Source: an uncultured Methanosarcinales archaeon
Lineage (GTDB): Archaea; Nanobdellota; Nanobdellia; Woesearchaeales; DSVV01
Assembly (NCBI GenBank): GCA_964453185.1
Contig: CAYVNN010000002.1
Location: 274,308 to 338,307 of the forward strand
Length of the DNA stretch: 64,000 nt
Direction: 5' to 3'
Shown here: in pieces, positions 2,456 to 63,023 of the stretch
How the letters are laid out: each line of letters opens with the position of its first letter
Position numbering within the stretch: position 1 is the stretch's first letter
Position numbers and translations under genes: made by a program
Notes under the pieces: model-generated
Database searches by the model: none
What the model saw: only the letters and a program-made list of their open reading frames with translations
Told to the model about the DNA's origin: nothing

Positions 2456-3407
2456 CTTCTTTCTCGGAAGAAGGTGTGTTTAATGAAGAATATTTTTTAT
2501 TTTGTAAAAATTTGTCTAATTCTTCTCTAAGAAATTCTTTTGCATTTTTAAGATACTTAATGCTTGGCTTTAACTTAACTCTATGCGCAATTACTGATTC
2601 AATTATCTCTTCAATATCTTTGTACCCAACTTTATCCTTATTTTTTAACAATGCAATACTTTGACTTCTTTCATATAATCCTAATGTTGCCCTTACACTT
2701 GGTGTTTTTTCTAAATTTTTATTATCTCTTATGTTTCTAACAAAATCTACACAAAAGTTTAACAAATTATCTGGAAATTCAACATCTAAATTTTTCCCAT
2801 TTATTAATACAATCTCTTTTTCAATCTCAAATGTTTCTGGATAATCCATATATACAACATCTAATCTATCAAGTAAAACATCTGAAACCTTTTCAGTACT
2901 TGAATCTTGTGGATTCATTGTTGCAATAAAGATAAAGTTAACATCAAAATCAATATCATAACTTCCAATTGTTACAATTTTTTCTTGTAAAACTTGTAAT
3001 AAAGCATTTTGCAACTTTTCTGGACATCTATTTAACTCATCAAAAAACAAAACACCATTATCTGCTTTGAATAATTTACCTTTTGTGAATGCTTCAACAC
3101 TTAGTGGCCCATATTTTAAAGCTTTGATTGGATCAATATCTCCCAACAAATCTTCAGCAGTTAAATCAGGACTTCCTTGAATTCTAACAAAATTTAACTT
3201 TTCCTTTTTACCTTCTTTAATCTTTGGCATTAATGCTGCTACATTCTTTGCTATTGTTGTCTTTCCTACACCTGGTTTTCCAATTATAACAACATTCCTA
3301 TCTGCTAATATTGCAGACTTTATCTGTTGTTTTGCTTTGTACTGTCCTATGATGTCTTTAAGAACATCTTTCTTTAGTATTGTTTGTTTTAGTTTTGCGA
3401 TTGACAT
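2445..3407 (-). CDS. MoxR-family AAA+ ATPase
   Basis: Walker A GKPGVGKT, Walker B/sensor FFDELNRCPEKLQNALLQVLQE, and a FVRIQGSPDLTAEDLLG motif typical of MoxR/AAA_3. Confidence 0.8.
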   Translation of the reverse strand: MSIAKLKQTILKKDVLKDIIGQYKAKQQIKSAILADRNVVIIGKPGVGKTTIAKNVAALMPKIKEGKKEKLNFVRIQGSPDLTAEDLLGDIDPIKALKYGPLSVEAFTKGKLFKADNGVLFFDELNRCPEKLQNALLQVLQEKIVTIGSYDIDFDVNFIFIATMNPQDSSTEKVSDVLLDRLDVVYMDYPETFEIEKEIVLINGKNLDVEFPDNLLNFCVDFVRNIRDNKNLEKTPSVRATLGLYERSQSIALLKNKDKVGYKDIEEIIESVIAHRVKLKPSIKYLKNAKEFLREELDKFLQNKKYSSLNTPSSEKEGDP

Positions 3408-3440
3408 AAGGCCTGTAGAAGTAATATTTCTTTATAAAAG

Positions 3441-3866
3441 TTATTGTTCTAATAGTTCTTTTAGCTTATTATCTTTAATACTATTTTTTAACTGAAATAT
3501 CTTATTGATCATTTCTTTTCCTTGTTCATAATCAACTTTCTTACCATAATAATTAATACTAATCCTTGCATACCTAAATCTATCAAAACTATGGTAATCA
3601 AAGGCAGGGACTAATTCTCTTAGTAATTCACCCATACAAACATGGTTTGTAACATTATATCCTAGTATAAGACATAATGCTTCAAGTGTTTCTCTTAGAG
3701 CATCATAAGCCATTGGAAGAAATGCATTAACATTATTTTTATCAATATTTGCTGATCTAACTGCTTCTTCTTTTATGTCTGCAATTTCAATTAATGAAAT
3801 AGCTTTTGATTTATTTGGTATTGTAATTTTAATAAAACCTTTACTTTTACATTCGTTTATGTCCAT
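3441..3866 (-). CDS. HEPN-like domain protein, putative toxin partner of the MNT
   Basis: A 141-aa protein directly downstream of a minimal nucleotidyltransferase, overlapping it by 10 nt. This is the classic MNT-HEPN operon arrangement. The Rx4-6H motif is not clearly conserved, so confidence is low to moderate. Confidence 0.4.
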   Translation of the reverse strand: MDINECKSKGFIKITIPNKSKAISLIEIADIKEEAVRSANIDKNNVNAFLPMAYDALRETLEALCLILGYNVTNHVCMGELLRELVPAFDYHSFDRFRYARISINYYGKKVDYEQGKEMINKIFQLKNSIKDNKLKELLEQ

Positions 3867-6731: not shown

Positions 6732-7802
6732 TCAAAACTCTGTCAACTTTTTTACACTCTGGAATGTAATTATACTTGTACTTCCTTCTGTTCCACCAGA
6801 TATTTTCTTTATAGAAACAAACTTACCTACTTTTAACTTATTTATCTTTCTATAGAATGTTTTATATGAACTCTTACCACCACTTTCTTGATATATTTTA
6901 AATAAATCCCCAATTTTCTTACCTGAATTTAATTTTATTATTTTCAAAATAAAATCTGTTTCCTGTTCTAATTCTAAATTTGCTTTTGTTGATAATTCAT
7001 CCAATTTACTAATTGCTTTATTGACATGATCAATTCTAATTGTTCTTGAGCTTTCATTTTCTGCAACAAAACCTGCTTCTTTCATTAAATGTAATCCCGA
7101 TCTAATATCTTGTAAATCAAATGTTCGTGCAGCAATTATATCAAATGATTCTTTTAACAAAACATTTGAATTAAATGCATAATCTCTTCTTTGTGCAAGG
7201 ATATCTTTTGTTTCATTTGCATTGTATTCTTTAAAATGTAATAATTCAGGTGATAATCTTGATTTAATTCTATGATCAAGATTAATTAACCACTCTCTAT
7301 AATTAGAAATTAAAACAATTGTTTTTCTATAAATATCTTCTAATAATGTATATAAAAAATCAAAATCTTCAACCTTATCTATTTCATCAAATGCAAAAAC
7401 AACATTTGTTTTATTTAATCTACTAATAACTTCTTTAAACAATTCTTGTGTTTTCTTATTCTGTATAAATTTATATCCTAATAAATCACACATTTCAACT
7501 GCAATCTTATATGTGGTGTTATGTTTCCAGCAATTGATATAGATCGGAGTTACTTCTTCATAATTTTCTTCAATTTCCTTAAATACATGCTTAATTGCTA
7601 GTGTCTTTCCAATACCTGGTTTGCCGTGTACTAATACATTCTTTCCAGTTCTACCTGTGAATAATGGTTTTATGCAGTTAGCTATGTAAAACTGCTCCTT
7701 TTCTCTATGCAGCAATAATTTCGGCTGAAAACTAAAATCTAAAGCTATTTCGTTCTTGAATATCGATTCCCCCTCTTTAAGCATTCCTTCAAATAAGCCC
7801 AT
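6732..7802 (-). CDS. cdc6: Orc1/Cdc6 replication initiator
   Basis: Walker A HGKPGIGKT and Walker B VFAFDEID, followed by a C-terminal winged-helix region. Typical archaeal Orc1/Cdc6 length and architecture. Confidence 0.85.
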   Translation of the reverse strand: MGLFEGMLKEGESIFKNEIALDFSFQPKLLLHREKEQFYIANCIKPLFTGRTGKNVLVHGKPGIGKTLAIKHVFKEIEENYEEVTPIYINCWKHNTTYKIAVEMCDLLGYKFIQNKKTQELFKEVISRLNKTNVVFAFDEIDKVEDFDFLYTLLEDIYRKTIVLISNYREWLINLDHRIKSRLSPELLHFKEYNANETKDILAQRRDYAFNSNVLLKESFDIIAARTFDLQDIRSGLHLMKEAGFVAENESSRTIRIDHVNKAISKLDELSTKANLELEQETDFILKIIKLNSGKKIGDLFKIYQESGGKSSYKTFYRKINKLKVGKFVSIKKISGGTEGSTSIITFQSVKKLTEF

Positions 7803-7842: not shown

Positions 7843-8697
7843 TTATTTTAATCTCTTTCTTTTCATAGATTCAATTTCATCATTATAATTATCAGAACTA
7901 ACTACTTTTTCGTTTGTTTCTATTTCTAATTGTTTTCTAGCAATACCTGCAACAGCCCCACCTCTTTTTGCTGTATCTTTATTTTCATTGAAACCTTGTG
8001 CATTCTTCTTTTTTGCAATCTTTGTAGTTGAAGCTTCTCCCAACATGGTAAATATTAATTCTAAATCATTCATATGATCTCTTAAATTTTCTCTTTTCAA
8101 TCCTTTATGTTTCTTGTATTCAGCAGGTGTTAAACCGAATGTTGCTTTGCTGATTTCTGCTGTTAATATTGAATATTCTTTCCCTTTTTTAACTCCTCTT
8201 TTATCCCATTCATCAGTTAATTCATCTCTTACTGCTATTCCTCTAACTCTTTTCTCAATCCAATCATCAGAATAACCTTTTGCTTTGTATAATTCTCTCA
8301 TTCGTTTTTGAGTAAGTTCAGGTTTTTCAATTTCTTGTACTCTTTCATAACCTACTTTAGCTAACCATTTTTTGAAAGGTTCTGCTTTTGGAGAAGGAAT
8401 TGATTGGATTATTCTAAAAATGCCTTCAGTATTAGCACAGTCAGTAACTCGCATTTTACCATCATCTGCGAGTAATTTCAACTGGTGACAAAATGTCACC
8501 ACTTCACTTCCTTCTTCTCTAAGTCTTTGACTAAGCTTATTCCAATATTTCCTTGATCTTTGATATTCTTGCTGATCTACTAAAATAGCAACAACATCAA
8601 TTACAGAAAAATACCATTCTTCATTATACCATTGTCTCCGAATCTTTTTGTCTTGAAATACAATTAGTGATTTATCTGATTCTTTAATGACTAACAC
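7843..8697 (-). CDS. Bro-N domain / DNA-damage-inducible protein D (DinD)-like protein, paralog 1
   Basis: An N-terminal Bro-N-like segment (IRRQWYNEEWYFSVIDVVAIL) is present. The C-terminal HKGLKRENLRDHMNDLEL...KKKNAQGF region resembles E. coli DinD (RKGLKKNQKILDHMGSTEL...). About 60% identical to the ORF at 40841..41680. Confidence 0.65.
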   Translation of the reverse strand: MLVIKESDKSLIVFQDKKIRRQWYNEEWYFSVIDVVAILVDQQEYQRSRKYWNKLSQRLREEGSEVVTFCHQLKLLADDGKMRVTDCANTEGIFRIIQSIPSPKAEPFKKWLAKVGYERVQEIEKPELTQKRMRELYKAKGYSDDWIEKRVRGIAVRDELTDEWDKRGVKKGKEYSILTAEISKATFGLTPAEYKKHKGLKRENLRDHMNDLELIFTMLGEASTTKIAKKKNAQGFNENKDTAKRGGAVAGIARKQLEIETNEKVVSSDNYNDEIESMKRKRLK

Positions 8698-13259: not shown

Positions 13260-15140
13260 TCACTTAACCAACTCAACATCATGTCCTAGGTTAATAGCAT
13301 CTACTATTACTCTTCCTGGACCTGAATTCTTTTTTATTTTTATTATTCCTTTCTTACTGATTTTTGCAGTCATGTGAAAGTTTCCATTGATTAAAATATT
13401 AACTACTTTATTTCTTGTATTGTCATCTATGTAAAGATTAACATTTTTCTTTCCTATGTCATATCTAAATTCTATTCTTTTACCTTTAGAAACATTTACT
13501 TCTAATTCTCTTATATCAATTCCAATTCCAATATTTTTCTCAATCTCAGCTATTCTTTTTCCTTGCTTACCAATAAGAGAAGCAATCTTGTGTTCTGGAA
13601 CATAAACTATGCATTTGTGGTCGTCAACAACTTCAACTTTTGCATCTTCACAATATTGTTTTATTTCTTTCTCTATCTGTCTTGAAGCTAATTTCTTCGC
13701 AGGACTAGATCCACTATCACCTGAAACAGGAATAACAACAGTTTCTTCACCATAACTATATAATTCAAACTCCAGCTTCCCACTCTCAAAATCATTTACT
13801 ACAACAATTGGTCTTGCTAGATCTGCTTCAGTCATTCCTGAGGGAACTTTAACAACCATGCTTAAACTTAATATTTTACTAACATTACCATTCTTAATAA
13901 AAATAACAGTATCAATAACTTGTGGGATAACTCCTAATTCAATCCTACCAACAAACCTTTGGATTGCATCGATTGGATTAGTTGCGTGTACTATTCCAAT
14001 GAAACCAATTCCTGCTAATCTTAAATCTGCAAACAATTTGAAATCATCAGTATTTCTCATCTCATCAAAGAATGTATGATCAGGTCTACTTAATAACAGA
14101 ATGTCATGTACTTCTTGTGCATCTCCATGACTTATTGCATATTGTGTTATTGATTCAGGTAAAACTAAATCTCTTGGTGCTTCAACAGTCTTAACAACCT
14201 TATCCATTGAAGCATAATGTTCTGCTAGTGCTGCTGCAAATGTTGACTTACCCATCCCTGGAGATCCTGCAATCAATATTCCTTCTGCTTGTTCTCCAAC
14301 TCTGGTTAATAATTTTTCAGATAATTTATATTCTTTTAATGTTAATTTTTTAACAGGTCTAACTGCTGTAATTTCCCATGCATCTGAAAAAGGAGGTCTT
14401 GTTATAACTATTCTAAACTTATCTAACTGTACAATTGTAGATCCTGGTCTTTCAATCTCAATAAAACTATCTCTTCTAACATTTGCTTCTTCAATTATCT
14501 CTCTGCTTATATCTTGAATATCTTCTCTTGTTAATTTCTTTTTACCAACATGTTCAAATTTCCAGCTTCCTGGAAAACCTTTTTTAGCAAATGGTTGGAT
14601 ATTTTCTCTTAAATGCACAGACATGCTAGTTTTATCAAAGAACTTTTCTAATTTTAATTTTTTAGCTACAGAACCAACTTCAACAAAGATTGTTTGTATA
14701 CCTTTTGCTTCAGCAACTTTAGCTTGAACTTTATCAGCTGTCATTAACACAGCTCCTTTCTCATAAGCAAACTCTCTTATTAATGAATCAATCTCACCTA
14801 ATTTTGCATTTTGTATATCATAAAGTTTTGGTCGTGTACCAGCAAAGTCCAATTTTATATTATTCTTATCACAAACTTTTCTTATACTCTTTAATTCATT
14901 TAAACCAAGATAACCTATTGCTCTGTTACTATTAGCTTGATGTTCAAGTTCAGCAATGACTGCTTCATGTATCATAATAACCTGCGGAATTAAACTTTTA
15001 TCCAATATTTTTTTAGAAACATCTCCTTCAATGATTACTGATGTATCAGGAACTAGAATCTCAACTTTCTCTTTTTTTACCATATTCTCACCTTTTTTAG
15101 CATTTAAACCAGCGCCTTGAGTCATTATCAAATTATACAT
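13260..15140 (-). CDS. PIN domain - PhoH/PilT-like ATPase - KH domain protein (COG1855 family)
   Basis: An N-terminal PIN-like motif VEILVPDTSVIIEG, Walker A GSPGMGKST, and a C-terminal KH motif LIGKQGKRIAEIEKNIG. The real start is probably an internal Met near 15083. Confidence 0.7.
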   Translation of the reverse strand: MYNLIMTQGAGLNAKKGENMVKKEKVEILVPDTSVIIEGDVSKKILDKSLIPQVIMIHEAVIAELEHQANSNRAIGYLGLNELKSIRKVCDKNNIKLDFAGTRPKLYDIQNAKLGEIDSLIREFAYEKGAVLMTADKVQAKVAEAKGIQTIFVEVGSVAKKLKLEKFFDKTSMSVHLRENIQPFAKKGFPGSWKFEHVGKKKLTREDIQDISREIIEEANVRRDSFIEIERPGSTIVQLDKFRIVITRPPFSDAWEITAVRPVKKLTLKEYKLSEKLLTRVGEQAEGILIAGSPGMGKSTFAAALAEHYASMDKVVKTVEAPRDLVLPESITQYAISHGDAQEVHDILLLSRPDHTFFDEMRNTDDFKLFADLRLAGIGFIGIVHATNPIDAIQRFVGRIELGVIPQVIDTVIFIKNGNVSKILSLSMVVKVPSGMTEADLARPIVVVNDFESGKLEFELYSYGEETVVIPVSGDSGSSPAKKLASRQIEKEIKQYCEDAKVEVVDDHKCIVYVPEHKIASLIGKQGKRIAEIEKNIGIGIDIRELEVNVSKGKRIEFRYDIGKKNVNLYIDDNTRNKVVNILINGNFHMTAKISKKGIIKIKKNSGPGRVIVDAINLGHDVELVK

Positions 15141-15236
15141 GACACCGCACTAAAAGTCGTAGGCGTTTATCTTATTTCATTTTGAGTCAGACTCGCCCTG
15201 GTTTTAATGCGTTACTAAAACCGCCGTGGTACTAAT
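15100..15236 (+). repeat. Structured intergenic repeat, copy R1 (type-1 stem gcatttaaaccag/ctggttttaatgc), with 3' tail module
   Basis: gcatttaaaccag-CGCCTTGAGTCAtTATC...cgcactaaaagtcgtaggcg...cAGACTCGCC-ctggttttaatgc. A gccgtggtacta tail follows. Confidence 0.75.
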
Positions 15237-20660: not shown

Positions 20661-20679
20661 TTTATTGTTAGCACAGTTA

Positions 20680-20817
20680 GCATTTAAACCAGCGCCTTGA
20701 GTCATTATCAAATATCCACATCACATCGCACTAAAAGTCGCAGGCGTTAGTCTTGTTTCACTTTGTACCAGACTCGCCCTGGTTTAAATGCGTACTAAAA
20801 GAGCCGTTGTGGTACTA
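20680..20817 (+). repeat. Structured intergenic repeat, copy R2 (type-1 stem), between pyrI and pyrD
   Basis: Same block order as R1 and 85-90% identical to it. The stem gcatttaaaccag/ctggtttaaatgc is perfect. The tail is agagccgttgtggtacta. Confidence 0.75.
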
Positions 20818-20841
20818 TTTATTATTTTTATGAGGAACTAA

Positions 20842-26978: not shown

Positions 26979-27010
26979 TTTATCCCTCCAATTTAATTAA
27001 TGCCATTAAT

Positions 27011-27117
27011 AATAGTGCCACCGCCTTGGCTCACTATCGGAATTATTTTCCAATAGCGACAAATGCTCGGATTCGTTCATCATATATTTGTATTGAATCA
27101 GAGCCGCTGTGGTACTA
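27011..27117 (+). repeat. Structured intergenic repeat, copy R6 (type-3 stem agtgccaccgcc/gccgctgtggtact; inner stem GGCTC/GAGCC)
   Basis: Block B is conserved (CGCCTTGGCTCACTATC). The 3' arm is cAGAGCCGC-tgtggtactatta, and both stems show compensatory changes relative to R1-R3. Confidence 0.65.
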
Positions 27118-27771
27118 TTATTTCACTACAGTATCTGATATTTCATTATCAAATACTTCCATTTCACCTTTATAGTTTTTAATTAATTCTTTCAACCTAA
27201 ATATAATTAAATGTTGAATATCACAATGGAATCCTTCTACTAATGGTGTTGAATCTTTTGGAACAATTATACATGCATCTGCTATTTCTTTGAATGCACC
27301 ACCATCAAATCCAGACATTCCTATAACTTGTCCACCTTTGTCTTTTATGAATTGCATTGCTTTTGTCAAGTTCTGACTCCATGGTCCACCTTTGTCTCTT
27401 CCTTTTCCACCATGTACACTTATAGCAATTCCAATATCTCCTGGCTGACAAAAGTTTTCTAATTGTCCAACATAAACATTTTCCCACCCTGAATCATTTA
27501 TCCATGCAGTTACTAATGGAACATTATCAAACAATGAGATTCCTTTGAATCTTCTTTTTCCTTCAATGATTGTTGTTTTTGTTAAGTCTGCTGCAAAATG
27601 TGTTGCAGTTGACGCACTTCCACCATTTCCAAACAAGAAAATTTGTTTATCATTTTTCCAAGCTTCAAATAAAATATTAATTGCTTTATCAATTTCATTC
27701 TTATCAATTGTTTCTGTAATATTAACAACTTCTTTCATATAATTTTCAATATATCCTATGTTATTTACCAT
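27118..27771 (-). CDS. gmhA: SIS-domain D-sedoheptulose-7-phosphate isomerase
   Basis: GNGGSASTATHFAADL is a GmhA-like SIS motif. The protein is 217 aa and sits next to heptose kinase, phosphatase and nucleotidyltransferase genes. Confidence 0.7.
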   Translation of the reverse strand: MVNNIGYIENYMKEVVNITETIDKNEIDKAINILFEAWKNDKQIFLFGNGGSASTATHFAADLTKTTIIEGKRRFKGISLFDNVPLVTAWINDSGWENVYVGQLENFCQPGDIGIAISVHGGKGRDKGGPWSQNLTKAMQFIKDKGGQVIGMSGFDGGAFKEIADACIIVPKDSTPLVEGFHCDIQHLIIFRLKELIKNYKGEMEVFDNEISDTVVK

Positions 27772-40692: not shown

Positions 40693-40701
40693 TCTTTTCT
40701 A

Positions 40702-40840
40702 GCATTTAAACCAGCGCCTTGAGTCACTATCTAAATATTTATCAAATCGCACTAAAAAATGTTGCGGTAGTAATATTATTTCTTAGAATCAGACTCGCCC
40801 TGGTTTAAATGTACTATTTATCAGAGCCGTTGTAGTATTA
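40702..40840 (+). repeat. Structured intergenic repeat, copy R3 (type-1 stem), between smc and dinD-like paralog 2
   Basis: gcatttaaaccag-CGCCTTGAGTCACTATC...cgcactaaaaaatgttgcg...cAGACTCGCC-ctggtttaaatg. The tail is cagagccgttgtagtatta. Confidence 0.75.
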
Positions 40841-41680
40841 TTATTTTAACTTCTTTTTATCTTTATTTTTTAAATAATTATCTTTAGATATAATTGATTC
40901 TCCTAAATTATTTTCTAAATCTTTTCTTGTTCTTTTTGCAATATTTCCACCTTTCTTAGCAGAATCTTTACATTCATCAAATCCTTGGGAATCTTTTTTC
41001 TTTGTTATGTCTGTAGTTGCTTTTTCTCCAATCATGTTTAAGATCAATTCCCAATCAGTCATGTGATCTCTTAAGTTTTGATTTGGTCTTTTTAGTCCTT
41101 TGTAATTCTTATATTCTCCTACTGTTTTTCCAAATGTAGCTTTACTAATTTCATTTGTTAATATTGCAAACTCTTTGCCTTCCTTAACATTTCTATTCTT
41201 CCATTCTTCTGTTAAATCTTGCCGTATTGCAATTCCTCTTAACCTTTTATCTATCCATTCCTTTGGATAACCTTTAAGTTCGTAATATTTTTTAATTCTA
41301 TCTTGTCCTAATTCAGGATTTTCTATTTCTTCAATTCTTTCATATCCAATCTGAGCTAACCATTGTTTAAATGGCTCTGCTTTCTTAGAAGGAATTGATT
41401 GAATAATTCTAAACATAGATTTAGTATTAGCACAGTCTGTAAGTCTCATTTTACCATCTTCTGCTTGTAGTTTCAACTGTACGATTATATCGTACACTTC
41501 AAATCCTTCTTCTTTTAATGTCCTTTTTAAATCAGACCAATACCTTTTTGGAATAGAACTTACTTCTAATGCTGTAACTACATCTACTACAGAAAAATAC
41601 CATTCATCATTATGCCATGTCCTTCTTATGTTTTTACCTTGAAAAACTACTAGTTTATTGACTTCCCCCATAAAAACCAC
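40841..41680 (-). CDS. Bro-N / DinD-like protein, paralog 2
   Basis: About 60% identical over its full length to the ORF at 7843..8697. The shared motifs are the same: NIRRTWHNDEWYFSVVDVV and YKGLKRPNQNLRDHMTDWELI. Confidence 0.65.
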   Translation of the reverse strand: MVFMGEVNKLVVFQGKNIRRTWHNDEWYFSVVDVVTALEVSSIPKRYWSDLKRTLKEEGFEVYDIIVQLKLQAEDGKMRLTDCANTKSMFRIIQSIPSKKAEPFKQWLAQIGYERIEEIENPELGQDRIKKYYELKGYPKEWIDKRLRGIAIRQDLTEEWKNRNVKEGKEFAILTNEISKATFGKTVGEYKNYKGLKRPNQNLRDHMTDWELILNMIGEKATTDITKKKDSQGFDECKDSAKKGGNIAKRTRKDLENNLGESIISKDNYLKNKDKKKLK

Positions 41681-42872: not shown

Positions 42873-44008
42873 TCTTCTTTTGGTGTATACTTCTCAACTA
42901 TTTTAATAATTTCTTTAGCTGTTTTTTTCCAATTATAATTCTTAACAATTGTTTCTCTAGCTTTTCGACCTAAATATTCTCTTAACTCTTTGTCTTTATA
43001 CAGAATTTCAATTTTCATAGCTAATACTGTTGGGTTTTTGAACGGAAACAACATACCATTCTCTCTTTCTTTAATATATTCTTTAACATAACCAACTGGT
43101 GTAACAACAGGAGGAATACCACAAGCCATTGCTTCCATTGTTGCTAATGATGTTGTCTCAGTTAAACTTGACAATACAAAAACATCCATTGTTTGAAGAT
43201 AAGGAACAACATTATCTTGTGAACCAACCATAATAATATTTCTTGAAGAACTAAACTCTTCTTCTAAATCTTTTATTCCTTTTCCAACAATAAGTAATTT
43301 AACATTATCATATTTTCTTTCTAACCTTCTAAATGCTCTATATAATGTTATTAAATTTTTTTCTCTACCTATTCTTCCACAAAAGCCAATAACAAATGTT
43401 CCTTTCTCAACAGCCAATAAATCTTTAGCCTTTTCTTTATTTTTTGTTGGAACAAATATTTCTGTATCAGTTCCTAACGCAACAACCTCTTTGCTTGCTT
43501 TAATACCTACTTTTGTTAATTTTTCTAATGTTTCAAGAGAAGGACATATTAATAAATCACATTTACTATAGAAATATTTAGCTAATGTTTTTGTTCCGAT
43601 ATTAATTGCATGTTTAAATCTGTCAATACTTTTTGTTGTTAATTCCCAATCAATTGAATGTATGTATGAAATAACAGGTTTATTATATTTTTTTGCAGCT
43701 AAAATTCCACACATTCCAATTGGACCAATGCATTGATTAAATACAACATCTGCTTTTTCAATTATTTTTTTAATTTTTGAATATTCAAATTTACTAAAAT
43801 AAATATCTGCAACTTCCATATTGTACAATGGCAATCTAATAACAACTGCTCCAGTGATTCCTTTAAACTTACCTGGAAACTTAGGTGCTAAGACAGTTAT
43901 CTTATATTCATCTTTTAGTTTTGGAATTATCTCTGATAAAAACCTAGTTACACCATCCCATCTGGGCATAAAACAATCAGTTGTTATTACAAGATGTTTT
44001 TTCTTCAT
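42869..44008 (-). CDS. Glycosyltransferase family 4 (PIG-A/BshA/MshA-like)
   Basis: C-terminal motif SSLTETTSLATMEAMACGIPPVVTPVG. The likely start is MKKKHLVITTD. The longer annotated start would overlap a repeat element. Confidence 0.7.
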   Translation of the reverse strand: MKKKHLVITTDCFMPRWDGVTRFLSEIIPKLKDEYKITVLAPKFPGKFKGITGAVVIRLPLYNMEVADIYFSKFEYSKIKKIIEKADVVFNQCIGPIGMCGILAAKKYNKPVISYIHSIDWELTTKSIDRFKHAINIGTKTLAKYFYSKCDLLICPSLETLEKLTKVGIKASKEVVALGTDTEIFVPTKNKEKAKDLLAVEKGTFVIGFCGRIGREKNLITLYRAFRRLERKYDNVKLLIVGKGIKDLEEEFSSSRNIIMVGSQDNVVPYLQTMDVFVLSSLTETTSLATMEAMACGIPPVVTPVGYVKEYIKERENGMLFPFKNPTVLAMKIEILYKDKELREYLGRKARETIVKNYNWKKTAKEIIKIVEKYTPKED

Positions 44009-44025
44009 TTTTATTACCTTAACTA

Positions 44026-44154
44026 ATAATGCCACCGCTTTAAGCATTAGTACTGTCGCCTTGGCTCACTATCAAATAAAATCATAAGTACGCACTAAAC
44101 TATGTTGCGTTAGTAGTATCTGCACATATAGTCAGAGCCGCCACAGTACTAGTG
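44026..44154 (+). repeat. Structured intergenic repeat, copy R7 (composite: partial type-3 5' arm + type-4 element gcattagtactgt/acagtactagtgc)
   Basis: aataatgccaccgc, then gcattagtactgt-CGCCTTGGCTCACTATC...cgcactaaactatgttgcg...cAGAGCCGCC-acagtactagtgc. Confidence 0.65.
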
Positions 44155-44165
44155 CCTTGCTATTA

Positions 44166-44831
44166 TTATTTTATTTTAGTAAATACCTCAGCATATCTAT
44201 ATCCATATTCTAAACCATTTAATATTGCTCTAGTATAAATTATTGGTATCATTTGTAATAATACCATCTTCTGGCTGTTATGTAATTTAAATGCTTTGAT
44301 CATAACATCTAAAGTTTTAGTAATATCTACAACAAGTTTTGGTTCATTTCTTTTTCTAATATTAATTGGGTTCCATACATCAAATGAATAGACATCACAT
44401 TTATACTTTAATTCATTTAATATTTCTAATATTATTTTTAATACTGCTTGATGATCTGGGTGTGGGTCATCTATTGAATGCGTAAAGATTTTTGTTGGCT
44501 TTTTTTCTTTTATCACTCTTGTAACACTTTTTTTAAGATCTTTATTCTTGAACTCTTCTTTAAACTTTCCTTCCTTTAATCCATAGTATATAACTCCACT
44601 TCCTCCCATTACTTTATCACATTTCTGTGATTCAACAACTCTTGTTTCAACAATTGCCTTTCTATTGTAATGTGGATGAGAGCTTTCACCATATGAAAAT
44701 ATGTATGTATAGAAATTCTTGCCTTCTTTTGCATATTTAACTAATGTTCCACCACAACCAATTACTTGGTCATCATTATGTGCACAGAAAACAAACACAT
44801 TTTCTTCTTTCTTACTATCTTGATTCTTCAT
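44166..44831 (-). CDS. PIG-L / LmbE family N-acetylglucosaminyl deacetylase
   Basis: VFCAHNDDQVIGCGG matches the AHPDDE motif, and HPDH is also present. 221 aa. Confidence 0.7.
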   Translation of the reverse strand: MKNQDSKKEENVFVFCAHNDDQVIGCGGTLVKYAKEGKNFYTYIFSYGESSHPHYNRKAIVETRVVESQKCDKVMGGSGVIYYGLKEGKFKEEFKNKDLKKSVTRVIKEKKPTKIFTHSIDDPHPDHQAVLKIILEILNELKYKCDVYSFDVWNPINIRKRNEPKLVVDITKTLDVMIKAFKLHNSQKMVLLQMIPIIYTRAILNGLEYGYRYAEVFTKIK

Positions 44832-44882
44832 ATGTAATAGGTATTTATAAATTAATTAATAAAGTTTGTTAATATTAGTATT

Positions 44883-44998
44883 AAAACCAGCATTTGTACT
44901 AGCGCCTTAACTCACTATATATTAACCCATGTGTTGCTCTAAAAAATGTTGCGGTAATAAGAATATACTTAGAGCCAGAGTCGCCCTAGTACAAATGC
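44883..44998 (+). repeat. Structured intergenic repeat, copy R4 (type-2 stem gcatttgtactag/ctagtacaaatgc, preceded by aaaaccag remnant)
   Basis: aaaaccag-catttgtactag-CGCCTTAACTCACTAT...gttgctctaaaaaatgttgcg...cAGAGTCGCC-ctagtacaaatgc. It lies in the divergent promoter region between the PIG-L gene and ppdK. Confidence 0.7.
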
Positions 44999-45096
44999 AT
45001 ATTCTTATAATCACTATATGTTCTATTTCCACAACATTTTTTAACAAGAACACTGTCCATATTTAGATAATTACTATTATAGGGAGGGATTTAAAA

Positions 45097-47721
45097 ATGG
45101 AGAAAAATGTATACTTTTTTGGAGCAGGAAAAACAGATGGAAATCAATCAATGAAGGAAGAATTGGGAGGAAAAGGTGCAAATCTAGCAGAAATGGCTAA
45201 TTTAGGAATAAATGTTCCACCTGGCTTTACAATCTCAACAAAGGCATGTGAATTATTTTATGAATCTAATAAAACATTACCACTTAATGTTCTTGAAGAA
45301 ATTCATCAGAATCTAGAACAACTAGAATCTTCTATGGGTAAAAAACTAGGAGATATAAATGATCCATTGCTAGTATCAGTAAGAAGTGGAGCAGCTATCT
45401 CAATGCCAGGAATGATGGATACTGTTCTTAATTTGGGGCTAAATGATACAACAATACAAGCATTAATACAAAAGAGTAATAATCCCAGATTTGCTTATGA
45501 TGCATACAGACGATTATTACAAATGTTTGGAGATGTTGTAATGAATGTTTCCCATACTAAGTTTGAACATGCATTAACAAAATTAAAAGAGACAAAAGGA
45601 GTTAAGTATGATACAGAATTAAATTCAGATGATCTAAAATCTTTAATTGAATCATATAAACAAATAATTAAAGAAACCACTGGTAAAGATTTTCCACAAG
45701 AACCAATTGAACAGCTTAATATGGCTGTCTCTGCGGTTTTCTCTTCGTGGAATAATAATAGAGCAATTTCATACAGAAGGATTAATAAAATTCATGGATT
45801 AAAAGGAACAGCAGTTAATGTTCAATCAATGGTATTTGGTAATATGGGTGAATCATCAGGTACAGGTGTTTGTTTTACAAGAGATCCATCAACAGGTGCA
45901 AAAGTATTTTATGGTGAATATTTAATGAATGCACAAGGTGAAGATGTTGTTGCAGGTACCAGAACACCACAACCACTTGATACACTAAATAATGTAATGA
46001 CAAACTGTTATCAAGAACTTACTGCTATTATGGACAAATTAGAAAAACATTATACAGATATGCAAGACATGGAATTTACAATTCAGGAAGGTAAATTATA
46101 TATTTTACAGACAAGAACAGGTAAAAGAACAGCACATGCAGCAGTTAAGATTGCAGTCGACATGGAACAGGAAGGATTAATTAACAAAGAAACTGCAATA
46201 TTAAGAGTTCAACCTGATCAATTAGATCAATTATTACATAAACAATTAGATGCTGTTGCAAAACAAGAAGCAGAGATTGTTGCCAAAGGTTTACCTGCTT
46301 CACCTGGTGCAGCTGTTGGCCAGGTTGTGTTTAATGCAGATGATGCGAAGAAATGGGCAGATGAAGGTAAAATTGTTATTTTAGTAAGAACAGAAACATC
46401 ACCTGAAGATATTGAAGGTATGCATGCAGCTCAAGGTATCTTAACATCACGAGGAGGGATGACTTCACATGCAGCAGTTGTTGCAAGAGGAATGGGTAAA
46501 TGTTGTGTTGCAGGTTGTGATGATGTTTTGATTAAAGAAAATGAAAGATTCATGCAGGTTGCTGATTTAAAAATAAATGAAGGTGATTGGATTACACTTG
46601 ATGGTTCAACAGGTGAAGTTATTAATGGTAAAATGCCTGTTGTTGATCCTGAGTTAAAGAGTGAGTTTAAAACATTAATGTCGTGGGCAGATGAAGTTAA
46701 GACATTAATTGTTAGAACAAACGCTGACACACCATATGATTCAAAAGTTGCTAGGGATTTTGGTGCAGAAGGAATTGGCTTATGTAGAACTGAGCATATG
46801 TTTTTTGAAGGTGACAGAATTAAAGCAGTTAGAGAGATGATTCTTTCAAAAGATCTCGACGGAAGAAAAAATGCTTTGGCAAAACTTAAACCAATGCAAA
46901 AGAATGATTTTAAAGGATTGTTTGAAGTAATGAGTGGTCATCCAGTTGTAATTAGATTACTTGATCCTCCATTACACGAATTCTTACCAAAAGAAGATGA
47001 AGATATTAAAACAATGGCAACAGAGATGAATATTGAAGTTAATAAAATCAAAGACTTAATCAAATCATTACATGAGTTCAATCCTATGCTTGGTTTCAGA
47101 GGATGTAGATTAGCAGTAAGATATCCAGAGATTGGAGAAATGCAAGCTCAGGCAATACTTGAAGCAGCAGTAGAAGCAAAACAACAAGGACATGATGCAC
47201 AACCATGGATTGAAGTTCCATTGATTGGAGATGTTAAAGAGTTTACATTGGTTAAAGACATTATTGAAAATGTTGCAAATGGATTAAATTTAGAGAGAGG
47301 GAGAGATTATCAAATTGGAACAATGATTGAAGTTCCGAGAGCAGCATTAACAGCAGACGAGATTGCAAAAGAAACAGACTTTATGTCTTTCGGTACAAAT
47401 GATTTAACTCAAATGGGTTGTGGATTTAGTAGAGATGATTCAGGTAAATTTCTTAGTGAATATGTTGAAAAAGGGATCTATGCTGTAGATCCTTTCCAAA
47501 GCATTGATCAGCAAGGAATTGGTGAGTTGATGAAGATTTGTGTTAACAAAGCTAGATCAATTAAACCTGATATACATATTGGTATTTGCGGTGAACATGC
47601 TGGTGAACCTGTATCAGTTGAATTCTGTCATAAGATAGGATTAAACGATGTAAGCTGTTCTCCATACAGGGTACCAATAGCTAGACTAGCAGCAGCACAT
47701 GCAGTTATTAAAGGTAAGTAA
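45097..47721 (+). CDS. ppdK: Pyruvate, phosphate dikinase
   Basis: The 874-aa length, the N-terminal GGKGANLAEM ATP-grasp region, the phospho-His region GGMTSHAAVVARGMG, and the C-terminal PEP-utilising TIM barrel with GICGE. Confidence 0.85.
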   Translation: MEKNVYFFGAGKTDGNQSMKEELGGKGANLAEMANLGINVPPGFTISTKACELFYESNKTLPLNVLEEIHQNLEQLESSMGKKLGDINDPLLVSVRSGAAISMPGMMDTVLNLGLNDTTIQALIQKSNNPRFAYDAYRRLLQMFGDVVMNVSHTKFEHALTKLKETKGVKYDTELNSDDLKSLIESYKQIIKETTGKDFPQEPIEQLNMAVSAVFSSWNNNRAISYRRINKIHGLKGTAVNVQSMVFGNMGESSGTGVCFTRDPSTGAKVFYGEYLMNAQGEDVVAGTRTPQPLDTLNNVMTNCYQELTAIMDKLEKHYTDMQDMEFTIQEGKLYILQTRTGKRTAHAAVKIAVDMEQEGLINKETAILRVQPDQLDQLLHKQLDAVAKQEAEIVAKGLPASPGAAVGQVVFNADDAKKWADEGKIVILVRTETSPEDIEGMHAAQGILTSRGGMTSHAAVVARGMGKCCVAGCDDVLIKENERFMQVADLKINEGDWITLDGSTGEVINGKMPVVDPELKSEFKTLMSWADEVKTLIVRTNADTPYDSKVARDFGAEGIGLCRTEHMFFEGDRIKAVREMILSKDLDGRKNALAKLKPMQKNDFKGLFEVMSGHPVVIRLLDPPLHEFLPKEDEDIKTMATEMNIEVNKIKDLIKSLHEFNPMLGFRGCRLAVRYPEIGEMQAQAILEAAVEAKQQGHDAQPWIEVPLIGDVKEFTLVKDIIENVANGLNLERGRDYQIGTMIEVPRAALTADEIAKETDFMSFGTNDLTQMGCGFSRDDSGKFLSEYVEKGIYAVDPFQSIDQQGIGELMKICVNKARSIKPDIHIGICGEHAGEPVSVEFCHKIGLNDVSCSPYRVPIARLAAAHAVIKGK

Positions 47722-47749
47722 TTAGCACCACTTTAATTAGCATTTGTAC

Positions 47750-47850
47750 TGGCGCCTTGAGTCACTATCTAATAACTTATAATACCGCACTAAAATATGT
47801 TGCGTTGATAATATAATTACATAGAATCAGACTCGCCCTAGTACAAATGC
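47750..47850 (+). repeat. Structured intergenic repeat, copy R5 (type-2 stem gcatttgtactgg/ctagtacaaatgc), downstream of ppdK
   Basis: gcatttgtactgg-CGCCTTGAGTCACTATC...cgcactaaaatatgttgcg...cAGACTCGCC-ctagtacaaatgc. Confidence 0.75.
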
Positions 47851-48039
47851 ATTTTAAGGCTAAGATAATTAATAATCTTTCTCAGAATCAAAAATCGATC
47901 AATCACATCTTTCGAGTAAGGTTTTTACCGCCGTAAGACGAACCTATAGGATTCAACTCCGAAAACCTCTGCTTTCGAATGCGATTGACCAAGACTATTT
48001 CTGACAGAACTCATATTTAAATTTATTGAAAATAAAGAA

Positions 48040-48156
48040 TGCGCCGGCCGAGATTCGAATTTCCGGTTGCTTTAGGCAACGCTCGGATCAACGGCTCCCT
48101 TCTTAGCTATTAAGCCAAATGGAAGGCCGCTATACTAGCCATTGTACTACCGGCGC
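48040..48156 (-). tRNA. tRNA-Gly (anticodon UCC) with two putative introns (anticodon loop 37/38 and T-arm 53/54)
   Basis: The minus-strand transcript is GCGCCGG UA GUAC AAUGGCUA GUAU A GCGGC CUUCCA[23-nt intron]A GCCGU UGAU CCGAG[22-nt intron with GUUGC-CUAAA-GCAAC hairpin] UUCGAAU CUCGG CCGGCGC A. It has a perfect acceptor stem, the consensus T-loop UUCGAAU and the archaeal tRNA-Gly 5' end GCGCCGGUAG. No CCA is encoded. Confidence 0.6.
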
Positions 48157-62474: not shown

Positions 62475-63023
62475 CTACATAATTTTTCCAGCTTTTTCAG
62501 TAATATATATTCCTGGTTGAAATATTCTTCTATCAAAGCCAGGTCTTTTACATAATTGTTCAATTGAAGCTGCTGTTTGTCCAGAAACTTCTTTATTAAT
62601 ATGTGTTACAGTGATGATATCTCCTTCAACTTTTAAATCAACACCTTGTTGAATCTTAAGTTTTCTTGGAATCTTTTCTCCAATAAAATTTTTAACACTT
62701 AATTCATTGTTTGAATATGATACATTCATTGGAAAATGACCTGAACAAATCTTTAATTTGTATACGTATGGTTCTTTTACTCCTTTTAACATATTTTTAA
62801 TATGTGATTTAAATGTTCCAACCATTGTTTTTTCATTTTTTGTTAAAACTTTAACAAAAATAATTACTTTATTATTTTCTACACTAATTTTAATTTTAGG
62901 ATCACGAAGAGCTCTCTTAATTTCACCTTTTTCTCCTTTTACATAAATAAGATTACCTTCACTAACTGTAACTTCAACACCTTCTGGGATTTCAATTTCT
63001 TCTTTATAATCTTTAAATTTCAT
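62475..63023 (-). CDS. rpl6: Ribosomal protein uL6
   Basis: A two-domain uL6 pattern of 182 aa, in its canonical position between eL32 and uS8. Confidence 0.85.
   Translation of the reverse strand: MKFKDYKEEIEIPEGVEVTVSEGNLIYVKGEKGEIKRALRDPKIKISVENNKVIIFVKVLTKNEKTMVGTFKSHIKNMLKGVKEPYVYKLKICSGHFPMNVSYSNNELSVKNFIGEKIPRKLKIQQGVDLKVEGDIITVTHINKEVSGQTAASIEQLCKRPGFDRRIFQPGIYITEKAGKIM

Follow-up and report, generated by a model that had tools for sequence, protein, structure and literature searches.

The 64-kb stretch of DNA analysed here (referred to as the window) carries seven copies of an intergenic hairpin repeat, R1 to R7, lying among genes that include those for pyruvate phosphate dikinase (PPDK), a PIG-L protein and a GT4 protein. 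The window has a GC content of 29.9% and encodes archaeal-type uS5 and SecY. Top matches of its PPDK, PIG-L and Bro-N proteins were found in metagenome-assembled genomes of Woesearchaeota and Nanoarchaeota, and the closest PPDK outside the window's own population was only 70% identical. Exact copies of window proteins were present on groundwater-metagenome contigs (ENA SCRA20 and SUTE22 series, JGI 3300009106 and 3300009374). Contigs of about eight samples were 99.9-100% identical to the window, which therefore represents a single population of an uncultured DPANN archaeon. For comparison of the PIG-L locus, two relatives were used: L094/L095 from the same groundwater sites as the window (PIG-L 74% identical; the closest relative reached) and L097/L098 from another site (PIG-L 61% identical). 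The PPDK-GatB neighbourhood was compared in L085, L087 and L100. The Bro-N relative L099 had no synteny with the window.

Repeat finding and motif searches yielded the seven copies of about 118 nt at 15-48 kb (Table 1), all intergenic and all on the + strand. Their density is one per about 5 kb across 33 kb, and four sites (R3, R7, R4 and R5) are placed inside 7.2 kb. A covariance model built from the seven scored 99-133 bits on R1-R7 and at most 12 bits on the rest of the window, their own reverse strands excepted. Overall identity between copies is 60-87%. The repeats are short (about 118 nt, where under about 500 bp is usual for MITEs, a name that stands for miniature inverted-repeat transposable elements), multicopy (n = 7) and, lying between annotated genes, without coding capacity. 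Their terminal 13-14-nt arms are complementary in every copy, as in terminal inverted repeats. Neighbouring genes are arranged in tandem on the - strand (R1, R6, R7), in tandem on the + strand (R2), convergently (R3, R5) or divergently (R4). Since copies occur in every gene arrangement, repeat orientation follows the chromosome and not the adjacent genes. The stop codon of a - strand SIS-domain gene is provided by the final bases of R6.

Table 1. Repeats, arm fragments and neighbouring features, in window coordinates unless another contig is named.
Feature	Position	Strand	Description
R1	15099-15215	+	Type-1 arms GCATTTAAACCAG / CTGGTTTTAATGC; between two - strand genes; 117.9 bits; predicted fold
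R2	20679-20796	+	Type-1 arms; between pyrI and pyrD (both +); 109.3 bits; predicted fold
R6	27008-27122	+	Own arms AATAATAGTGCCAC / GTGGTACTATTATT; three-hairpin interior unlike the others; 98.6 bits; predicted fold
R3	40701-40817	+	Type-1 arms, R5-like interior; between converging SMC and Bro-N genes; 129.6 bits
R7	44043-44160	+	Full hairpin inside composite insertion; 113.7 bits
R4	44889-45003	+	Type-2 arms GCATTTGTACTAG / CTAGTACAAATGC; 94 nt upstream of PPDK start; 104.4 bits; predicted fold
R5	47739-47855	+	Type-2 arms; 17 nt past PPDK stop; 132.8 bits
R6-type 3' half-arm, degraded, after R1	15221-15234	+	CCGCCGTGGTACTA; 13/14 bases match R6 3' arm; p ~0.001 vs random windows
R6-type 3' half-arm after R2	20799-20823	+	AAGAGCCGTTGTGGTACTATTTATT; 0 expected by chance
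R6-type 3' half-arm after R3	40822-40845	+	CAGAGCCGTTGTAGTATTATTATT; 0 expected by chance
R6-type 5' half-arm before R7	44024-44041	+	TAATAATGCCACCGCTTT; 16/18 bases match; 0 expected by chance
Type-1 5' arm remnant	44880-44891	+	ATTAAAACCAGC; overlaps R4 start; left edge of relocated block
R7 composite insertion	44016-44165	+	R6-type 5' half-arm (44024-44041), R7 hairpin (44043-44160) and ATTATT end; absent from two relatives
Candidate target-site duplication, left	44005-44015	+	TCATTTTTATT; contains GT4 start codon; relative has single TCATTTT
Candidate target-site duplication, right	44166-44175	+	TTATTTTATT; contains PIG-L stop codon
PIG-L gene	44166-44831	-	Flanked by R7 and R4
PPDK gene	45097-47721	+	TIGR01828, 1368 bits; bracketed by R4 and R5
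Conserved region beside tRNA-Gly	47898-48000	-	L094 equivalent 3350-3463; about 90-100 nt
tRNA-Gly(UCC) gene	48040-48156	-	Two inserts of about 25 and 29 nt
Orc1/Cdc6 gene	6732-7802	-	Directly adjoins Bro-N domain gene
Bro-N domain gene	7843-8697	-	Paralog of the gene beside R3
Bro-N gene	40841-41680		Beside R3
TTTAAA in type-1 arms	15103-15108, 20683-20688, 20781-20786, 40705-40710, 40802-40807	both	Archaeal TATA-box consensus
L097 foldback family 1	L097 7625-7784, 9031-9190		About 160 nt; same orientation; pair brackets Rpe-RpiB
L097 foldback family 2	L097 6447-6559, 20570-20680		About 110 nt; foldback, intergenic

All seven copies were predicted to fold alike, with z-scores of -4 to -6. An outer stem of 13-14 bp is followed inwards by a 1x1 mismatch, which is C•C except in R6, where it is C•U. 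Next come a G-C/C-G step, a bulge of 3 nt (CUU) in the 5' strand and a helix of 5 bp, and after these a 4x4 internal loop with invariant UCAYUAU and CA, a short helix and a variable interior. Six copies have a small CGCAC...GCG hairpin as their interior, whereas R6 has a set of three hairpins there. Between the invariant motifs CGCCTTNNNTCAYTAT and CAGANNCGC the spacing is 57-61 nt in all copies. In the alignment, both sides were changed at 9 of the 15 pairs of the outer helix and GC step, and 99% of the cells were paired. Two of the five pairs of the 5-bp helix covary (GAGUC/GACUC, GGCUC/GAGCC, AACUC/GAGU). None of 500 shuffles reached the observed values, and a shifted register left 29-40% paired. 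Wobble pairs favour + as the folding strand, G·U standing against A·C at 6:1 in helices 1-3 and at 12:1 with inclusion of the less well aligned helix 4. A conserved extra outer helix built from the half-arms was rejected, since folds computed with 25-45-nt flanks showed only idiosyncratic AT-rich pairings.

Several known motifs were considered for this fold and rejected. A K-turn was dismissed by eye from the folds and the alignment, as the 5-bp helix that follows the CUU bulge covaries and is Watson-Crick paired, without tandem G·A. The unpaired bases do not form two 3-nt bulges 4 bp apart, as a bulge-helix-bulge splicing motif would. ACA, RUGAUGA and CUGA boxes are absent from R1-R7 (by eye), and H/ACA and C/D boxes were rejected on this ground.

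Fragments of arms adjoin several complete copies. According to the original prediction, R7 is preceded by a partial foreign 5' arm and R1-R3 carry an extra 3' tail that is essentially an R6-type 3' arm. Both descriptions were borne out, the tail being present behind R2 and R3 and, degraded, behind R1, and the solo fragments beside R1, R2, R3 and R7 are all of R6 type. Their breakpoints lie at conserved motifs: the fragment before R7 extends through ...CGCTTT (the bulge), and the tails after R2 and R3 begin at (C)AGAGCC, the 3' strand of the 5-bp helix. The predicted type-1 remnant before R4 is weaker and probably real; ATTAAAACCAGC is the sole near-match to a type-1 arm in the window apart from the type-1 arms themselves. 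The 17 nt between the PPDK stop codon and R5 (TTAGCACCACTTTAATT) weakly resemble the R6/R7 upstream half-arm. A tRNA origin of the tails was also considered, GAGCCGTTG being common to the tails and tRNA-Gly; local alignments of all copies with this tRNA, both strands included, were not significant (z < 2), and the match was put down to coincidence.

The base region of R3 is 93-94% identical to those of R1 and R2, while its interior is 75% identical to that of R5 versus 54-55% to those of R1 and R2. Judged by these identities, R3 is a true mosaic of type-1 arms and an R5-like interior. The modular shuffling that had been proposed for the family has support as far as the solo R6-type half-arms and the R3 mosaic are concerned, both of which look like outcomes of recombination between copies. 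It does not extend to the four arm types, which are compensatory variants of one 15-bp helix; as 5' and 3' arms always change together, arm types are not independent modules. Nested insertion, one of the mechanisms originally suggested, was not borne out: both halves of an outer element around an inner one were seen in no case, and classical nesting is thus not demonstrated. Given that half-arms end exactly at conserved motifs, recombination or cleavage at these motifs fits at least as well.

For R7, the history of the site can be read from relatives. In L094/L095, the gene order is TrmB, Rpe-RpiB, tRNA-Gly, PIG-L and GT4, and the PIG-L stop and GT4 start codons overlap as ATGA. In L097/L098 the genes come in the same order, and 1 nt separates PIG-L from GT4. 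Exactly at this PIG-L/GT4 junction, about 150 extra nt are present in the window. No copy was detected by the R1-R7 covariance model in L094/L095 or L097/L098, so that R4, R5 and R7 are all absent there. With two relatives having a tight junction and no repeat, the whole composite of about 150 nt around R7 is a derived insertion. The comparison of orthologous loci that the original prediction had proposed as a check thus yielded empty sites in two relatives and no shared composite element. The reading as miniature mobile elements gains from these empty sites and is correct for the most part; the apparent modularity that had been cited for it is mostly hairpin covariation. The placement of R7 and R4 on either side of the PIG-L gene was correctly described. 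At the insertion itself, TCATTTTTATT and TTATTTTATT are a candidate 9-10-bp target duplication, which occurs once only in the relative.

Alternatively, R1-R7 could be immobile relics of old local duplications that persist as tolerated intergenic hairpins, with deletions in the relatives accounting for the differences and decay for the half-arms. The confinement of all copies to 33 kb, their overall identity of only 60-87% and the lack of polymorphism among sampled populations would fit. The tight PIG-L/GT4 junction (ATGA overlap or 1 nt apart) is, however, shared by two independent relatives and typical of an ancestral operon state, and is unlikely to have arisen by precise deletion. Neutral decay would break pairing, yet 99% of outer-helix cells pair, and the conserved motifs at which half-arms stop are the same in four separate loci. 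We consider such an origin extremely doubtful.

The distribution of the repeats was examined at several scales. Rfam 15 at gathering thresholds gave 0 matches across the window, and a permissive search for an Rfam family near R7 and R4 gave only chance-level hits (best snoZ157, E = 0.16), which were rejected. A two-part exact-motif scan covered one genome each of 185,579 species, JGI metagenomes and viral contigs, and produced 36, 42 and 1 matches, respectively. These were singles in unrelated organisms, roughly as many as chance would give, and all were rejected by the covariance model; as such scans demand exact matches, diverged relatives would escape them. Covariance-model copies were found in none of five relatives. 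The Woesearchaeota relative L097 instead carries two foldback repeat families unrelated in sequence to R1-R7 (Table 1). From these other families, hairpin repeats look general in these genomes, with lineage-specific sequences. Such a pattern is the behaviour of selfish repeats and not that of conserved RNA genes.

The main rival to the mobile-element reading is nevertheless a function at the RNA level. R1-R7 would then be structured small RNAs or RNA-level cis elements produced from the + strand, with the hairpin kept by selection as a protein-binding or processing signal and dispersed perhaps by transposition. Strong compensatory covariation speaks for this, as do the preference of G·U pairs for one strand, the conservation of base and arms far above the interiors and the T-rich tracts after most copies. 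The copies have 38-42% GC in a 30% GC genome, as expected of structured RNAs in AT-rich archaea. In bacteria, similar repeats are frequently transcribed and function as RNA (PMC3184786). On the other hand, no conserved upstream sequence fit for an archaeal promoter was seen in the alignment, and no Rfam family corresponds to the repeats. One copy (R2) runs in the sense direction of its operon and three (R1, R6, R7) run antisense, and a cis role in mRNA must work both ways. Every relative examined lacks copies, orthologous sites included, and one has unrelated foldback families; one copy was inserted between translationally coupled genes, and truncated half-copies adjoin full ones. An RNA-level role is for these reasons regarded as unlikely, with more to commend it than the other alternatives.

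A second derived rearrangement lies to the right of PIG-L, where R4 and R5 bracket PPDK. PPDK follows GatD/GatB in L085, L087 and L100, and no GatB was found in the gene tables covering the window. At the RpiB-tRNA-PIG-L locus, PPDK is absent in both L094 and L097. When L094 was aligned with the window, the extra block was found to be limited at about 44870 on one side, no more than about 20 nt from R4 (arm remnant counted), and at about 47897 on the other, no more than about 40 nt from R5. R4 and R5 have the same orientation, share type-2 arms and have base regions that are 89% identical, the highest value for any pair outside the type-1 group. Since the locus lacks PPDK in two relatives and PPDK stands beside GatB in three, the R4-PPDK-R5 block is derived. 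Judged by gene order, PPDK was relocated together with its promoter region as a single gene. The repeats may have carried PPDK, may have mediated the rearrangement by recombination or may have colonised the new intergenic DNA.

The right limit of the PPDK block is marked by a region of about 90-100 nt between tRNA-Gly and R5 that is conserved in L094. It contains two pairing segments (UUCGAAAG / CUCGAAAG); of 16 predicted pairs, 6 covary when the window is compared with L094, and Rfam gave no match; the region may be an unannotated small RNA beside the tRNA. The tRNA-Gly(UCC) gene has its two inserts in the anticodon loop and the T-arm region. It was missed by ARAGORN and by the Rfam gathering pass, and reached 35.2 bits in a permissive search (tRNA gathering score 29). 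As the 64-kb window is otherwise without tRNA, intron-containing tRNAs are probably under-called in this genome.

Two differences were noted on contigs of the window's own population. Contig L096 (SCRA20, scaffold_32237; positions 2027-2211, window equivalent left of 44425) is the same as the window across the PPDK start, R4 and about the first 135 PIG-L codons, and then departs into unrelated AT-rich sequence, cutting PIG-L to 152 aa. This could be a subpopulation rearrangement, an insertion or an assembly break. In the ribosomal protein L6 region, a short indel separates the window (62607-62641) from strain contig L090 (10787-10849), and the L090 gene is called at 151 aa instead of 182 aa.

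The bracketing of PPDK raises the possibility of integron-type recombination. R1-R7 would in that case be attC-like sites whose folded single strand, with its extrahelical bases, is read by a recombinase, with PIG-L and PPDK as cassettes and R3-R7-R4-R5 as an integrase-less cluster. The end boxes of attC sites are R'' (RYYYAAC) and R' (GTTRRRY). Like attC sites, including those of archaeal integrase-less clusters, the repeats are imperfect hairpins of comparable length (118 nt falls among the sizes of attC sites) in which unpaired bases are conserved and the apex varies. All copies have one orientation, they are similar within the genome and not found elsewhere, and half-arms break at conserved motifs. 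Four sites fall within 7.2 kb, and PPDK is a single relocated gene tightly bounded by two of them. Archaeal integrons, mostly integrase-less clusters, were reported in Nanoarchaeota/DPANN (PMC9668308).

The details of the sites depart from this scheme. AAC/GTT occurs only in the type-1 arms (ATTTAAAC / GTTTAAAT), which are one base too long for RYYYAAC ... GTTRRRY, and four of seven copies (R4, R5, R6, R7) instead read ...GTAC... / ...GTAC.... Stem geometry differs as well, the paired outer stem being 13 bp against a 7-bp R box. Unlike the short, generally same-orientation open reading frames (ORFs) of attC arrays (PMC9668308), the genes between sites are housekeeping genes of mixed orientation, namely Bro-N (-), a 347-aa ORF (+), GT4 (-), PIG-L (-) and PPDK (+). 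R7 was inserted alone between ancestrally adjacent genes without a cargo gene, and no recipient site exists at the locus in either relative. No IntI or tyrosine recombinase was listed in the window gene tables, and no integrase was found in 74 kb. An attC-like role of the repeats is considered very improbable.

The reading that we favour, and hold to be somewhat more probable than all others together, is that R1-R7 are lineage-specific, non-autonomous foldback elements (MITE/ERIC-like) of a Woesearchaeota-type DPANN archaeon that are moved in trans. The repeat family is previously undescribed, but the kind of genomic parasite is known, and it is the archaeal counterpart of bacterial MITE/ERIC-type palindromic units. 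ERIC measures about 127 bp and Correia about 104-157 bp (PMC3184786). R1-R7 resemble ERIC/RU and Correia MITEs (about 100-160 bp) in size, in the lack of an ORF, in their intergenic position and in the folding of the unit into one long imperfect hairpin. Presence and absence likewise differ between related genomes, and copies are located at regions of genome plasticity. They are unlike these elements in having no sequence similarity to them, an archaeal (DPANN) host, free arms with an invariant internal asymmetric motif, a single orientation and no known cognate transposase, and the typical TA or other target duplication is not demonstrable for R1-R7. When two MITEs lie on either side of other DNA, they can mobilise it (PMC3184786, citing Gillings 2009 and Poirel 2009).

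According to the model, the functional unit would be the + strand hairpin, with a 13-bp outer stem of any sequence provided that it pairs. The base module that this stem closes is invariant (C•C or C•U, G-C/C-G, CUU bulge, covarying 5-bp helix, UCAYUAU / CA), and the variable apex follows. A transposase or nuclease whose gene lies elsewhere in the genome would recognise the base module and move or recombine the elements. The target would be AT-rich intergenic DNA, preferentially beside or into existing copies. The outcome would be solo half-arms cut at conserved motifs and mosaics of arms and interiors, and pairs of copies could carry an intervening gene or mark its breakpoints, as in R4-PPDK-R5.

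Mobilisation in trans, the base motif as a site of recognition or cleavage by a protein, and a single-stranded intermediate are parts of this model that we infer. The single-strand idea derives from the uniform orientation of the seven copies and from wobble pairs that work only on the + strand. For a transposase that reads the arm sequence itself, the variation of this sequence between copies would be unusual. Taken together, free arms, the invariant asymmetric motif, half-arm breaks, wobble pairs and orientation suggest that a protein would recognise a folded single strand, as in REP/RAYT or attC/IntI, and that no classical transposase reading terminal inverted repeats is at work.

A precedent for such recognition exists. 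RAYT binds single-stranded DNA of repetitive extragenic palindromes (REPs), and a perfected palindrome abolishes cleavage; REPs are 20-40 bp long, have a terminal GTAG or CGTC tag and usually form inverted dimers (PMC3733652). As in REP/BIME-RAYT systems (IS200/IS605-type), a folded single strand with hairpin imperfections would be recognised, full units and partial ones are combined in mosaic clusters, and the uniform orientation could follow from strand-specific chemistry. Unlike REPs, R1-R7 are single units of 118 nt without GTAG/CGTC, and their ends are AGCATT...AATGC or AATAAT...ATTATT. RAYT (IS200/IS605-like Y1) is not represented by any such Pfam family in the gene tables covering the window. 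From the sequences compared, formal membership in attC or REP fails on end motifs, size, tag and array architecture.

A bolder reading would take the base module as the cleavage and strand-exchange site of an undescribed archaeal enzyme acting on folded single-stranded DNA. The repeats would be portable recombination sites that relocate single housekeeping genes such as PPDK as cassettes, their orientation would reflect the replication strand, and half-arms would be products of half-reactions. The logic of this enzyme would be that of attC/IntI or REP/RAYT, with no sequence relation to either. We regard this reading as quite improbable.

Near the left end of the window, an Orc1/Cdc6 gene directly adjoins a Bro-N domain gene whose paralog (72% DNA identity) lies beside R3. 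The Orc1/Cdc6 gene suggests that an origin may lie close by and that a single replichore may contain all copies. GC skew, which tracks gene orientation, located no origin. The type-1 arms hold TTTAAA, which matches the archaeal TATA-box consensus, on both strands (Table 1); the one in the R2 3' arm is about 55 nt upstream of the pyrD start codon. Type-1 repeats might thus supply outward-facing promoters.

Several observations weigh against the favoured model. The hairpin is predicted to fold as single-stranded DNA on both strands, so that energetics cannot tell an RNA role from a DNA role. That 7/7 copies share an orientation has a two-sided probability of only about 0.016, and an origin of replication is not mapped. 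Flanking direct repeats of all seven copies are no better than chance in this AT-rich DNA (P = 0.15-0.56), which reduces the duplication at R7 to a single-site hint. No transposase, integrase or HUH/Y1 enzyme was listed in gene tables for the 64-kb window or for 10 kb past its right end, and hence no mobilising protein is identified; a cognate autonomous element sharing the repeat ends was likewise lacking in this stretch. Sampled populations are 99.9-100% identical and show no current insertion polymorphism, and mobility is deduced only from relatives with 61-74% protein identity. Finally, arms and base motif outconserve the interiors (R3 vs R1/R2: 93-94% vs 54-55%), for which selection on the individual copies to act as RNA would be just as good an explanation.

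The genomes of DPANN archaea are very small and streamlined, and mobile DNA is usually said to be scarce in them. Here, structured repeats are dense and lie at two derived rearrangements, one of which relocated a gene of central metabolism, and small non-coding repeats would on this account reshape gene order and operon structure. For annotation, strongly covarying intergenic hairpins in such genomes need not be RNA genes, and families differ between relatives. If it is true that the base motif is read by an enzyme acting on single-stranded DNA hairpins, the system would be an archaeal addition to the short list of structure-specific DNA recombination systems.

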